Shown here: positions 1-46,305 of the stretch, piece after piece | How the letters are laid out: each line of letters begins with the position of its first letter | How positions within the stretch are numbered: the stretch's first letter is position 1 | From: Escherichia coli | GTDB lineage: Bacteria; Pseudomonadota; Gammaproteobacteria; Enterobacterales; Enterobacteriaceae | DNA: 64,000 bases | Direction: 5' to 3' (one strand) | NCBI RefSeq assembly: GCF_044647545.1 | Contig: NZ_CP172818.1 | Program-made: the position numbers and the translations under genes | Notes under the pieces: generated by a model | What the model saw: the letters and a program-made list of their open reading frames with translations, nothing else | The model's database searches: none | What the model was told of the DNA's origin: nothing

Positions 1-154
1 GGAGGATCATACTATGAATGCATTTTTGCGTTTTCTGGATGCAGATATCCAGAACAACCCGCAAAAAACTCGTCCATTCAACATTCAACAAGGAAAGAAA
101 CTTGTCGCTGGCATGGACGTCAACATTGATGATGAGATTGGCGACGACGAATAA
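1..154 (+). CDS. prlF: PrlF (SohA) antitoxin, 3' portion only (5' end lies outside the window)
   Basis: In-frame translation ends ...MNAFLRFLDADIQNNPQKTRPFNIQQGKKLVAGMDVNIDDEIGDDE, stop TAA at 152-154 overlapping the yhaV ATG by 1 nt; recognised as the PrlF C-terminus. Confidence 0.8.
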   Translation, partial: EDHTMNAFLRFLDADIQNNPQKTRPFNIQQGKKLVAGMDVNIDDEIGDDE

Positions 155-618
155 TGGATTTTCCACAAAGGGTTAATGGTTGGGCGCTATATGCTCATCC
201 CTGTTTTCAGGAAACCTACGACGCTTTAGTTGCCGAAGTCGAGACATTAAAGGGAAAAGATCCTGAAAATTATCAGAGAAAAGCCGCCACAAAGTTATTG
301 GCGGTAGTCCATAAAGTGATTGAGGAGCATATCACGGTCAATCCATCATCACCGGCATTCCGTCATGGCAAGTCGTTAGGCTCTGGGAAAAATAAAGACT
401 GGTCACGGGTAAAATTTGGTGCTGGTCGTTATCGTCTCTTCTTTCGTTACAGCGAAAAAGAGAAAGTCATCATTCTGGGATGGATGAACGATGAAAACAC
501 GCTGCGCACCTACGGTAAAAAAACAGATGCCTATACCGTATTCAGCAAAATGTTAAAAAGAGGACATCCTCCTGCCGACTGGGAAACCCTCACCCGAGAG
601 ACAGAAGAAACCCATTGA
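154..618 (+). CDS. yhaV: YhaV ribosome-dependent mRNA interferase toxin (PrlF-YhaV TA system)
   Basis: 154-aa ORF in track; sequence recognised as YhaV; immediately downstream of and overlapping prlF. Confidence 0.9.
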   Translation: MDFPQRVNGWALYAHPCFQETYDALVAEVETLKGKDPENYQRKAATKLLAVVHKVIEEHITVNPSSPAFRHGKSLGSGKNKDWSRVKFGAGRYRLFFRYSEKEKVIILGWMNDENTLRTYGKKTDAYTVFSKMLKRGHPPADWETLTRETEETH

Positions 619-3517: not shown

Positions 3518-3919
3518 ATGGAAATCAGTCTGTTGCAGGCATTCGCGTTGGGCATTATCGCCTTTATCGCTGGCCTGGATATGTTTAACGGCCTAACCCA
3601 TATGCACCGCCCGGTGGTCCTCGGCCCGTTGGTCGGGCTGGTACTTGGCGATCTGCATACCGGTATTTTAACCGGCGGTACGCTGGAACTGGTGTGGATG
3701 GGGCTGGCCCCGCTGGCGGGCGCACAGCCGCCTAACGTGATTATCGGTACTATCGTCGGCACGGCGTTTGCCATTACTACTGGCGTGAAACCCGATGTCG
3801 CGGTCGGTGTCGCCGTACCTTTCGCTGTCGCAGTACAGATGGGGATTACCTTCCTGTTCTCGGTGATGTCCGGCGTGATGTCCCGCGGCGACCTGGCAAC
3901 AAACCCGTGCCGCGTTTGA
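3518..3919 (+). pseudogene. agaW: agaW' fragment of PTS EIIC component (N-terminal part only)
   Basis: 133-aa ORF with IIC-like transmembrane N-terminus that terminates prematurely; matches the truncated agaW of K-12, where agaE/agaF are missing. Confidence 0.8.
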
Positions 3920-6986: not shown

Positions 6987-7463
6987 ATGAGCAGTCCAAA
7001 TATTCTCTTAACCCGTATTGATAACCGTCTGGTTCACGGTCAGGTTGGCGTGACCTGGACATCCACCATCGGTGCGAATCTGTTGGTAGTCGTGGATGAT
7101 GTTGTCGCTAACGATGATATTCAACAGAAATTAATGGGTATTACCGCAGAAACCTACGGCTTTGGCATTCGTTTCTTTACTATCGAAAAAACCATTAACG
7201 TCATCGGCAAAGCTGCACCGCATCAGAAGATCTTCCTGATTTGCCGTACGCCACAAACGGTACGTAAATTGGTAGAAGGTGGTATTGACCTGAAAGATGT
7301 CAACGTCGGCAATATGCATTTCTCGGAAGGGAAAAAGCAAATCAGCAGTAAAGTTTATGTCGATGACCAGGATCTCACGGACTTACATTTTATTAAACAA
7401 CGTGGCGTGAATGTTTTCATTCAGGACGTCCCTGGCGATCAAAAAGAACAAATCCCTGACTAA
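6987..7463 (+). CDS. agaB: AgaB, PTS galactosamine-specific EIIB component
   Basis: 158-aa ORF; paralogous to AgaV (RIDNRLVHGQVG motif). Confidence 0.92.
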   Translation: MSSPNILLTRIDNRLVHGQVGVTWTSTIGANLLVVVDDVVANDDIQQKLMGITAETYGFGIRFFTIEKTINVIGKAAPHQKIFLICRTPQTVRKLVEGGIDLKDVNVGNMHFSEGKKQISSKVYVDDQDLTDLHFIKQRGVNVFIQDVPGDQKEQIPD

Positions 7464-9086: not shown

Positions 9087-9953
9087 ATGGAACGAGGCAC
9101 TGCGTCTGGCGGTGCCTCTTTACTTAAGGAATTTCATCCTGTGCAAACCCTTCAACAAGTTGAAAACTATACGGCGTTAAGTGAACGTGCCAGCGAATAT
9201 TTATTGGCCGTGATCCGTAGTAAACCGGATGCCGTGATTTGCCTGGCGACCGGAGCCACGCCATTACTGACGTATCATTATCTGGTAGAAAAAATCCACC
9301 AGCAGCAGGTTGATGTCAGCCAGCTCACCTTCGTGAAGCTCGACGAATGGGTGGATCTGCCATTAACAATGCCTGGCACCTGCGAAACTTTCCTACAACA
9401 GCATATCGTGCAGCCGCTGGGGCTGCGTGAAGACCAGCTCATCAGCTTTCGCTCTGAAGAGATAAATGAGACAGAGTGCGAACGGGTAACGAACCTGATT
9501 GCGCGCAAAGGCGGTCTGGATTTATGCGTTCTCGGATTGGGGAAAAACGGTCATCTTGGGCTGAACGAACCGGGAGAAAGCCTGCAACCGGCCTGCCATA
9601 TCAGTCAACTTGATGCCAGAACACAGCAACATGAGATGTTAAAAACCGCGGGCCGTCCCGTGACTCGTGGGATCACCTTAGGCCTGAAGGATATTCTCAA
9701 TACCCGCGAAGTTTTGCTACTGGTGACTGGCGAAGGAAAGCAGGATGCGACAGAACGTTTTCTCACGGCTAAAGTCTCTACCGCTATCCCGGCTTCTTGG
9801 GGCAACGCCCACACTCTCCCCCTGCTGCTCCAGTGCATACTTATACAGCGCATTTTTCTTCACGCCGTGAATTTCTGCTGCCAGCGCCGCCGCTTTTTTC
9901 AGTGGCAGTTCTGCCTGCAACAGCGCCAGCGTGCGCAGGGCATCGGCGGGTAA
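9087..9953 (+). CDS. agaI: AgaI-like galactosamine-6-phosphate isomerase/deaminase (NagB family) with altered 3' end: after about codon 238 the ORF is translation of antisense rsmI
   Basis: NagB-family ORF, ATG at 9087. Reference AgaI is recalled as 251 aa; here the frame stays open to 9953 (288 aa) and the tail ...[36 protein letters not shown]... is not NagB-like. Confidence 0.7.
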
Positions 9954-28559: not shown

Positions 28560-28745
28560 TAATACCCGATCTTCTGCGCATCCTCGCGACTAATGACAAC
28601 CCTAACCCAGCCCAATGTGGGTAAAGCCTCTCATTAGCCGCGCGAACCTCTGCAACGGAAGATCATTCATAGCAACAATACATTAGTTTCCAGTGAATTG
28701 CTGCCGTCAGCTTGAAAAAAGGGGCCACTCAGGCCCCCTTTTCTG
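28560..28745 (+). ncRNA. psrO: PsrO (SraG) small RNA, approximate boundaries
   Basis: Recalled position of SraG in the rpsO-pnp intergenic region, opposite strand to both genes; no independent sequence signature verified. Confidence 0.35.
28713..28745 (-). terminator. rpsO Rho-independent terminator
   Basis: gaaaaaaggggccactcaggccccctttt hairpin 14 nt downstream of the rpsO stop. Confidence 0.7.
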
Positions 28746-28758
28746 AAACTCGCAAGAA

Positions 28759-29124
<366 letters not shown>

Positions 29125-30597: not shown

Positions 30598-30672
30598 TGG
30601 CCTGATAAGACGCGCCAGCGTCGCATCAGGCAATCCATGCCGGATGCGGCGTAAACGCCTTATCCCGCATGG
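30598..30672. repeat. REP elements in the infB-rbfA spacer
   Basis: gcctgataagacgcgccagcgtcgcatcaggc and gccggatgcggcgtaaacgccttatcccgcatgg. Confidence 0.7.
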
Positions 30673-35350: not shown

Positions 35351-35410
35351 GCCCACCCCCAAGACATAAAAAAAGGGCCTAAAGCCCAGTTATTCTGTAG
35401 TCAGATAACA

Positions 35411-35434
35411 AAAAACCCCGATAAATCGGGGCTT
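35411..35434 (-). terminator. Hairpin with T-run between metY and rimP (attenuator/terminator)
   Basis: Minus strand agccccgatttatcggggtttttt. Confidence 0.55.
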
Positions 35435-35556
35435 TATATAACTGAACCCTATAACCGCAACTGCGGTCTGGAGCACTTTCCAGAAGGATTTTTTCAAATC
35501 CCACTACGAAGGCCGAAGTCTTCACAGTATATTTGAAAAAGGACTCTAAGGGAAAG

Positions 35557-35633
<77 letters not shown>

Positions 35634-39413: not shown

Positions 39414-39500
39414 TGGTACCGAGGACGGGACTTGAACCCGTAAGCCCTATTGGGCACTACCACCTCAAGGTAGCGTGTCTACCAATTCCACCACCTCGGC
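39414..39500 (-). tRNA. leuU: tRNA-Leu (anticodon GAG)
   Basis: Minus-strand 87-nt sequence gccgaggtggtggaattggtagacacgctaccttgaggtggtagtgcccaatagggcttacgggttcaagtcccgtcctcggtacca. Confidence 0.95.
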
Positions 39501-46057: not shown

Positions 46058-46305
46058 TTGTTATACCTCTTGAATATTCCTGATGGGGCAAGTCTTCACC
46101 CACCCCGGCTGTTCGGCCTGCCCGGCATAACTCCTCACCGGGACCAGAAGCAAAAAAAATACCGACCCGGGTACAGGTCCCAGGTCAGCTACAATTCACA
46201 TTTTGATAGTCATTTTACCCTGAAGTTCCCGAAGGGTCATCGTTTACTTTATAGGGCGTTGCGCCGTAGTATGACGGCTCGATTCCAGGTTGTTAGCGCG
46301 AGATT

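Follow-up and report, generated by a model that had tools for sequence, protein, structure and literature searches.

The closest described relative of the locus considered here is the PrlF (SohA)-YhaV module of Escherichia coli K-12 (b3129-b3130; UniProt P15373 and P64594), a well-studied and already known pair that is the type member of its family. In this module, PrlF neutralises YhaV (PMC7781912, PMC8546651), and the two proteins assemble into a PrlF2-YhaV4 complex that binds cooperatively to a palindrome in the promoter and represses the operon (PMC7781912). Both genes are read into one mRNA; the antitoxin:toxin mRNA ratio is 1.11, and the antitoxin is predicted to be translated at a higher rate (PMC5535158). 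The toxin is placed in the RelE/ParE superfamily (PMC11980606, PMC8546651) and is described as requiring its conserved arginines (PMC5408214), and the N-terminal domain of the antitoxin is of the AbrB/MazE swapped-hairpin DNA-binding type (PMC7781912, PMC5408214).

Features of the PrlF-YhaV module are shared with two better-known groups of systems. The toxin superfamily (RelE/ParE, with the BECR fold) and the organisation as an autoregulated two-gene operon are those of RelBE and HigBA (PMC8546651, PMC11980606), but the antitoxins differ, as PrlF is AbrB/MazE-like and neither RelB- nor HigA-like. RelE is also smaller, at about 95 amino acids relative to the 154 amino acids of YhaV. Moreover, YhaV constitutes its own Pfam family, PF11663, and the PrlF2-YhaV4 stoichiometry is unusual (PMC7781912). 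In the case of MazEF, the likeness lies in the antitoxin-first gene order and in the AbrB/MazE swapped-hairpin N-domain that the literature assigns to the antitoxin, for which there is also a weak PF04014 match below the cut-off, whereas MazF is a ribosome-independent, ACA-specific RNase with the CcdB/MazF fold (PMC8546651).

The window analysed here is a stretch of 64,000 nucleotides of E. coli DNA (contig NZ_CP172818.1), the first 618 positions of which are, with near certainty, the distal two-thirds of the E. coli chromosomal prlF-yhaV operon, a canonical type II toxin-antitoxin module. The pair is present in its wild-type form, and shares with K-12 the same YhaV protein, the same overlap between the genes, the same neighbours and the same two-copy TTCAACA tract, the differences being four synonymous substitutions in yhaV and the surrounding genome. 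The layout is that of a type II system, with two small, adjacent and co-directional genes that overlap, the antitoxin gene being first. Judged on every feature that can be tested from sequence, the pair belongs to PF11663, to PF15937 and to the type II class. The initial annotation had recognised a PrlF-YhaV type II pair at the window edge, and homology searches bear this out for both the 154-amino acid ORF and the partial ORF upstream of it, as detailed below. Chance ORFs are ruled out as an account of positions 1-618 by the HMM scores and the identity to K-12. Two further small ORFs, at 18-176 on the plus strand and 173-292 on the minus strand, are without support, and represent out-of-frame or antisense overlaps of prlF and yhaV.

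The toxin gene yhaV is complete (positions 154-618, plus strand) and encodes a protein of 154 amino acids that can be assigned, from its Pfam match and its identity to the K-12 protein, as a RelE-superfamily mRNA endoribonuclease toxin. Residues 12-150 align with positions 1-137 of the 138 positions in the PF11663 (Toxin_YhaV) profile (E = 7.8e-54; 181.9 bits, cut-off 35). The protein is identical to that of K-12 b3130 at all 154 of 154 residues, and the genes differ only by 4 synonymous substitutions, at nucleotides 297, 300, 348 and 447 of yhaV. It follows from such identity that the YhaV of the window retains every functional residue of the characterised K-12 protein, the conserved arginines among them. 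In matching chromosomes, the RefSeq product name is 'type II toxin-antitoxin system ribonuclease toxin YhaV', and in K-12 it is 'ribosome-dependent mRNA interferase toxin'. No NCBIfam model matches YhaV, which reflects a gap in the library and is no evidence against the identification. Sequence searches likewise found no PDB chain matching YhaV or PrlF, the sole hit to YhaV, the ThreeFoil entry 3pg0 (E = 0.0023), being a spurious repeat match; the assignment of a RelE fold thus rests on profile comparisons. PDB entry 2KHE is labelled as YhaV in PMC7781912, a label without support from the PDB sequence search.

The antitoxin gene prlF (sohA) is represented by its 3' part (positions 1-154, plus strand), which starts at the final base of codon 61 and runs through codons 62-111 to the stop codon TAA, with position 1 of the window corresponding to nucleotide 183 of the 336 in prlF by alignment with K-12 b3129. 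From position 2 onward the frame has no stop codon before the TAA at 152-154, and it is translated as EDHTMNAFLRFLDADIQNNPQKTRPFNIQQGKKLVAGMDVNIDDEIGDDE, corresponding to the C-terminal half of the antitoxin, which does not bind DNA and includes the acidic tail DDEIGDDE. Across all 154 nucleotides, no base differs from the 3' end of K-12 b3129. The fragment of 50 amino acids matches positions 48-99 of the 99-position PF15937 (PrlF_antitoxin) profile (E = 2.4e-17; 63.3 bits, cut-off 32). It also scores 70 bits against positions 61-113 of the 114 positions in the NCBIfam model NF007429 (PrlF); the shortfall from the whole-protein cut-off of 125 is due only to the 61 residues of PrlF that fall outside the window. 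The first 61 codons of prlF, encoding the AbrB/MazE-like N-domain, as well as the promoter and the palindromic operator, are all upstream of the window. The full-length PrlF encoded at the locus in a matching genome has a PF15937 match with E = 6.2e-42, and full-length K-12 PrlF scores 142.2 bits. In the full-length gene of matching genomes, residues 16-39 of PrlF show a weak match to PF04014 (MazE_antitoxin), with E about 1e-3 and a score of 19.5 bits that is below the cut-off of 24.7.

The junction between the two genes reads TAATG (positions 152-156, plus strand), where the prlF stop codon at 152-154 overlaps by one base with the yhaV ATG at 154-156. The initial annotation had placed the overlap at exactly these coordinates, and the same 1-nt overlap is annotated by RefSeq in a matching genome and in K-12. 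The 25 nt preceding the yhaV ATG (ATGATGAGATTGGCGACGACGAATA) contain no GGAG, GAGG or AGGA core, while prlF is preceded by AAGGA, about 10 nt upstream of its ATG. Because of the 1-nt overlap and the lack of a Shine-Dalgarno core before yhaV, it is likely that translation of yhaV is coupled to that of prlF by termination and re-initiation. Synthesis of YhaV would then probably depend on ribosomes that terminate translation of prlF, and such coupling would hold the output of toxin at or below that of antitoxin. The prlF1 frameshift allele has been reported to derepress the operon and to exert a polar effect on yhaV (PMC12107188), a polarity that fits with coupling.

Candidate transcriptional control elements lie on either side of the genes. 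Upstream of the window, in the locus of a matching genome (L001), a sigma-70-like promoter (TTTGCA-17-TATAAT, 10/12) lies at L001 positions 2754-2782, and a perfect palindrome, TAATGCA-TT-TGCATTA, lies at L001 positions 2747-2762, overlapping the -35 hexamer of this best promoter-like site. The palindrome appears to fit the published operator, for which binding by PrlF-YhaV (PMC7781912) and derepression of the operon (PMC12107188) have been described. An internal promoter-like site at 126-155 of the window (TTGATG-18-AATAAT, 9/12) was rejected; its -10 hexamer covers the TAATG junction and a transcript would start inside yhaV, and the promoter scan found 4 sites where 1.8 +/- 1.2 were expected, which also counts against crediting the site. 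Downstream, yhaV and agaR converge across a gap of 54 nt, which contains a G+C-rich hairpin (positions 631-665) with a 7-bp outer stem, UGCCCGC/GCGGGCA. The fold of 610-690 has a free energy of -18.2 kcal/mol (z = -1.13), and 31 of 200 shuffled sequences are as stable. There is no proper T-run after the hairpin and a scan for consensus terminators made no call, such that the hairpin is a weak candidate for a terminator shared by yhaV and agaR.

The genomic setting of the pair is that of the core chromosome. Several complete E. coli chromosomes match positions 1-1500 of the window at 100% identity, and in these RefSeq names the genes prlF, yhaV and agaR. The gene order is garD, then prlF-yhaV convergent with agaR, then kbaZ and the aga cluster, and is the same in K-12 and in FDAARGOS_497, with which the window is colinear from prlF to ptsN. 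Of 5,426 complete E. coli genomes, 5,155 (about 95%) contain the prlF/yhaV junction, the locus lying between garD and agaR, and the DNA is part of the core genome and not of a mobile island. The surrounding genome is nevertheless not that of K-12, as identity across the aga region is 97.3% and the yraHIJK genes are absent. The re-identification of a textbook chromosomal toxin-antitoxin pair matters little in itself, and its use is as an annotation anchor that marks the window as the segment of the E. coli chromosome running from prlF to ptsN. The pair had also been described as the only module of its type recognisable in the window. This statement holds as far as RefSeq annotation and an Rfam scan can show, since in the 64 kb of FDAARGOS_497 that are colinear with the window RefSeq names no further toxin or antitoxin gene, and the Rfam scan of all 64 kb found no type I antitoxin RNA. 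The RNAs that were found by the Rfam scan are SraG, the S15, rimP and greA leaders, naRNA4 and two tRNAs.

In addition to the overlap, prlF contains a tandem heptamer, TTCAACA, in two copies (positions 77-90, plus strand; nucleotides 259-272 of prlF, codons F87 to Q91), which is the wild-type state. A third copy creates the classic prlF1 allele, and the change from two to three copies at nucleotide 272 of prlF is a recurrent outcome of laboratory evolution. For instance, it has arisen under beta-lactams and many other chemicals (PMC7686311), under gallium (PMC6928379) and under the stress of segmental amplification (PMC12107188), and a 7-bp insertion at the same place in prlF has arisen under avibactam (PMC12323667). 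A prlF mutation that arose under amoxicillin has also been described as lowering ompF and conferring multi-drug resistance (PMC11838884). In the laboratory-evolution papers, the effects of prlF1-type alleles are derepression of the operon, hyperactivation of Lon, lower ompF and heteroresistance. The duplication thus represents a recurrent laboratory route to tolerance of beta-lactams, avibactam and gallium, and to relief of proteotoxic stress.

Both reading frames in the window are intact as far as they are seen and the heptamer is in its wild-type two-copy state, and the module is therefore predicted to be functional and repressed. In the published account of the operon, a single mRNA is made from the promoter upstream of the window and PrlF is translated first, and YhaV freed from its antitoxin cleaves mRNA undergoing translation on the ribosome, leading to a reversible arrest of growth. 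Decayed versions of the locus do exist in other genomes, including prlF genes frameshifted by 3, 4, 6, 7, 9, 12 or 19 copies of the heptamer, a yhaV gene interrupted by an IS66 element (strain PSS-15), and a YhaV R92L substitution (strain FORC_042). That the module in the window is a similar remnant, either two pseudogenes or an orphan toxin whose antitoxin has been disabled, is extremely improbable, since neither frame is interrupted, the YhaV protein is the same as that of K-12, for which toxicity and rescue have been shown, the heptamer is in two copies, and the part of prlF in the window is identical to K-12. Furthermore, the closest genomes carry no disabling mutation, either in the promoter or in the first 182 nt of prlF, FDAARGOS_497 differing only by Q39L. 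With regard to the activity of the toxin, the initial annotation described YhaV as a ribosome-dependent RNase, a description that agrees with the current view (Choi 2017; PMC8546651; the RefSeq name of the K-12 product) but not with the first study in 2007, which reported that YhaV cleaves mRNA and rRNA in vitro independently of the ribosome (as cited in PMC5408214). Both positions are recorded in PMC8546651, where the entry for ribosome dependence of YhaV reads 'Yes (44), No (43)'. It is nonetheless improbable that the main activity of YhaV in the cell is that of a general, ribosome-independent RNase with rRNA among its targets, and not that of a translation-dependent mRNase of the A site. 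Transcriptome-wide maps of YhaV cleavage resemble those of RelE and HigB in that the cuts are biased at the sub-codon level, fall preferentially in the 5' part of ORFs and tend to be followed by a G (PMC8546651), and YhaV is described as binding the 50S subunit within 70S ribosomes and as cutting mRNA in a frame-dependent manner (Choi 2017, as cited in PMC7781912 and PMC11980606). The family is similarly listed, as PF_YhaV, among ribosome-dependent toxins of the RelE/ParE superfamily with antitoxin-toxin gene order (PMC11980606).

A different question is whether the locus matters to the cell through growth arrest by YhaV, or through PrlF as a regulator of Lon-linked proteostasis and of ompF and sodB expression. 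The latter possibility is suggested by the repeated selection in the laboratory of prlF1-type duplications, with their consequences of Lon hyperactivation, lower ompF and beta-lactam heteroresistance, and by the selection of yhaV loss-of-function mutants in nutrient-limited chemostats (PMC5960147). In addition, stress was found to raise transcription of toxin-antitoxin operons with no detectable activity of the toxins (preprint 10.1101/2020.03.02.972737). In the same preprint, no signature of YhaV cleavage was seen under chloramphenicol, and it is thus doubtful that the chromosomal toxin is released under natural stress. On the other hand, the connection of PrlF with Lon lacks a mechanistic explanation (PMC12107188), and some of the phenotypes have been ascribed to action of YhaV on the ompF and sodB mRNAs (PMC7686311, PMC11838884). 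A role of the locus through PrlF, and not through YhaV, is a tentative proposal that is somewhat unlikely, and one that would add to the toxin-antitoxin mechanism without replacing it. The preferred reading remains that of a functional, repressed toxin-antitoxin module with a translation-dependent mRNase as its toxin.

The heptamer polymorphism is a lead apart from the main identification, as the window itself carries the ordinary two-copy allele. Two copies are found in about 5,132 of the 5,155 complete genomes that carry the locus, and three copies in 11; alleles with 4, 5, 6, 7, 9, 11, 12, 14 and 19 copies are each found in one genome, and three partial-match records had no copy number assigned. 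Ten of the expanded alleles were retrieved and the copy number read directly from the sequence. The genomes with 19, 14 and 12 copies are those of AREA_497, SCU-106 and MB06234, respectively. Since the repeat unit is 7 nt, the alleles fall into three frame classes. Those with 5, 11 or 14 copies are in frame and add FNIQHST units to PrlF. In alleles with 3, 6, 9 or 12 copies, PrlF acquires a prlF1-type tail ending in RKETCRWHGRQH, and the stop codon is moved to 25 nt before the yhaV ATG with loss of the stop/start overlap. Alleles with 4, 7 or 19 copies are of the read-through type, with the stop codon 22 nt past the yhaV ATG. Extended to any copy number, the predicted states would be in frame for n = 2, 5, 8, 11, 14 and so on, shortened for n = 3, 6, 9, 12 and so on, and read-through for n = 4, 7, 10 and so on, up to 19.

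Expanded alleles are also evident in an exact-sequence look-up of the predicted PrlF products in a collection of 15 billion proteins, counted by contigs, in which the wild-type product is on at least 1,000 contigs. The product of the 3-copy allele was found on 884 contigs, followed by those of the 4-copy (236 contigs), 5-copy (278), 6-copy (24), 7-copy (62), 8-copy (183), 9-copy (17), 11-copy (78), 12-copy (8) and 14-copy (35) alleles, and a cluster member of 146 amino acids, with a copy number of 17 that is inferred from its length only, was found on 4 contigs. Frameshifted alleles are under-counted in these figures because they are made pseudogenes by PGAP. No one-copy allele was present among the top matches listed for complete genomes, the three partial-match records aside, and the 116-amino acid product predicted for such an allele is absent from the protein collection. 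Full-text literature searches, with subscription-journal papers outside their scope, found descriptions of the change from two to three copies and none of natural expansions, which may therefore be a new observation.

Simple-sequence-repeat contingency loci, such as the tetra- to heptanucleotide tracts in phase-variable genes of Haemophilus and Neisseria, provide a possible parallel for the heptamer, though not for the module as a whole. The likeness consists of an intragenic tandem repeat with a unit that is not a multiple of three, a copy number that varies among isolates, and access to three reading frames. However, the prlF tract differs in commonly having two copies only, as is the case in about 99.6% of complete genomes, and in being situated near the 3' end, such that a change in copy number alters the C-terminus and does not switch off the gene. 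In laboratory selections, the only step observed is the forward one from two copies to three.

The expanded alleles are concentrated in one rare haplotype of yhaV, defined here by an exact segment of 71 nt at the 3' end of the gene and found in 58 genomes among the matches listed, of 5,079. The product of this haplotype, WP_000347279.1, is a YhaV with the substitutions A11V/T145S/L146F/R148Q/T153N. Of the 9 alleles that exceed three copies, 7 occur in this haplotype, as do 4 of the 11 with exactly three, amounting to 11 of 58 genomes relative to 9 of ~5,097 elsewhere (Fisher p = 2e-17, a value that is overstated, as the genomes are not independent samples). The expanded genomes comprise at least three sub-haplotypes, as determined from the accessions of the agaR and kbaZ proteins, and come from different hosts and different continents, and it is therefore likely that several independent expansion events have occurred. 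Apart from the repeat, the PrlF protein in strains of this haplotype is identical to that of K-12, and no difference in cis that would explain the enrichment was found near the repeat or in the promoter, the 215 nt upstream being identical to those of the SCU-106/CP55 haplotype, in which there is no enrichment.

Two explanations for the enrichment can be considered. The YhaV variant may be attenuated, in which case mutations at the prlF hot-spot would be tolerated and would accumulate, or the tract may represent a contingency switch that is under selection. The occurrence of alleles with 3 to 19 copies in field and clinical genomes, and their enrichment in one yhaV haplotype, suggests that the switch seen in the laboratory also operates in nature. 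It can be speculated that the TTCAACA tract is a naturally hypervariable, slippage-driven switch between three states of the PrlF C-terminus, one that would tune autorepression, translation of YhaV and Lon/ompF-linked tolerance, and that would be most active in lineages with the A11V/T145S/L146F/R148Q/T153N YhaV, although in this full form the proposal is more probably wrong than right. If confirmed, it would link a toxin-antitoxin locus to antibiotic tolerance that is heritable but unstable. Two of the strains in which prlF is frameshifted are also altered within yhaV itself, as the three-copy allele of PSS-15 is accompanied by the IS66 element inside the gene, and the six-copy allele of FORC_042 by the R92L substitution.

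The TTCAACA heptamer stands as two tandem copies on the plus strand of the window at 77-90, corresponding to nucleotides 259-272 of prlF, and the copy number of this tract varies across public E. coli genomes (related loci, L006-L015). Eleven complete E. coli genomes carry the three-copy allele, and other expanded alleles in complete genomes of the species have 4, 5, 6, 7, 9, 11, 12, 14 or 19 copies. The PrlF C-termini that result from the expanded alleles are in-frame, truncated or read-through, and contigs encoding the exact PrlF products of expanded alleles number in the tens to hundreds in a collection of 15 billion proteins. A one-copy allele was found neither in that collection nor, among the matches listed, in complete genomes. 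In the searchable full-text literature, natural expansions of the heptamer are undescribed, the sole event there being the laboratory duplication from two copies to three.

The expanded alleles are not evenly distributed with respect to the toxin gene. Using the 3' end of yhaV, equivalent to window positions 548-618, as a marker in other genomes (H105-H162), a rare haplotype can be recognized whose product is YhaV A11V/T145S/L146F/R148Q/T153N (WP_000347279.1). Expanded heptamer alleles occur in 11 of the 58 listed genomes with this haplotype, as opposed to 9 of ~5,097 others, an enrichment of about 100-fold in counts that are uncorrected for phylogeny. Within the rare haplotype, the expanded alleles are spread over at least three flanking sub-haplotypes.

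In two strains with a frameshifted prlF, the toxin gene is also changed. In PSS-15 (three copies; L025 4625-7798), yhaV is interrupted by an IS66 element, and in FORC_042 (six copies; L012/L024) the toxin is YhaV R92L. These changes are compatible with secondary inactivation of the toxin, the number of cases being only two.

The prlF portion of the window opens with the sequence GGAGGATCATACTATG (positions 1-16). This stretch includes a perfect GGAGG Shine-Dalgarno core, positioned 8 nucleotides 5' of the in-frame Met66 codon of prlF. Judged from the sequence, initiation at Met66 could in principle yield a 46-amino acid C-terminal PrlF fragment (ORF 14-154) that would lack the DNA-binding domain, but the presence of GGAGG at this position is probably a coincidence.

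No solved structure for YhaV or PrlF is detectable by sequence search of a 2026 copy of the PDB, and assignment of YhaV to the RelE fold is therefore still based on profile comparison. A figure legend in a 2020 review (PMC7781912) nonetheless refers to PDB 2KHE as 'YhaV monomer', a label that the sequence search does not bear out.

Elsewhere in the window, the aga cluster is missing ~2.3 kb at about 3884-3893 relative to the closest genomes (99.9% identical), a stretch running from the 3' part of agaW through agaE and agaF into the 5' part of agaA/nagA. The junction is placed at a short GCGACC microhomology, and the window and K-12 are colinear across it, with the surrounding DNA sharing only 97.3% identity with K-12. 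By sequence, the junction looks like the agaW'/'agaA pseudogene deletion of K-12, in spite of this flanking divergence. The window also differs from other genomes at 7152-7160 and 9797-9818. The agaB gene is intact, whereas the copy in FDAARGOS_497, the closest colinear genome, carries IS1; these two genomes also differ by a ~110-bp indel at the junction of the agaI 3' end and rsmI. Between agaI and rsmI, K-12 has the fimbrial genes yraHIJK, which the window lacks.

At the Rfam gathering threshold, seven RNA elements were called in the window: the SraG sRNA (28571-28742) on the plus strand and, on the minus strand, the S15 leader (28972-29086), naRNA4 (30599-30669), the rimP leader (35368-35468), two tRNAs (35560-35633 and 39417-39500), and the greA leader (46154-46275), all of which are expected for the pnp-rpsO-nusA-infB-greA region of E. 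coli.
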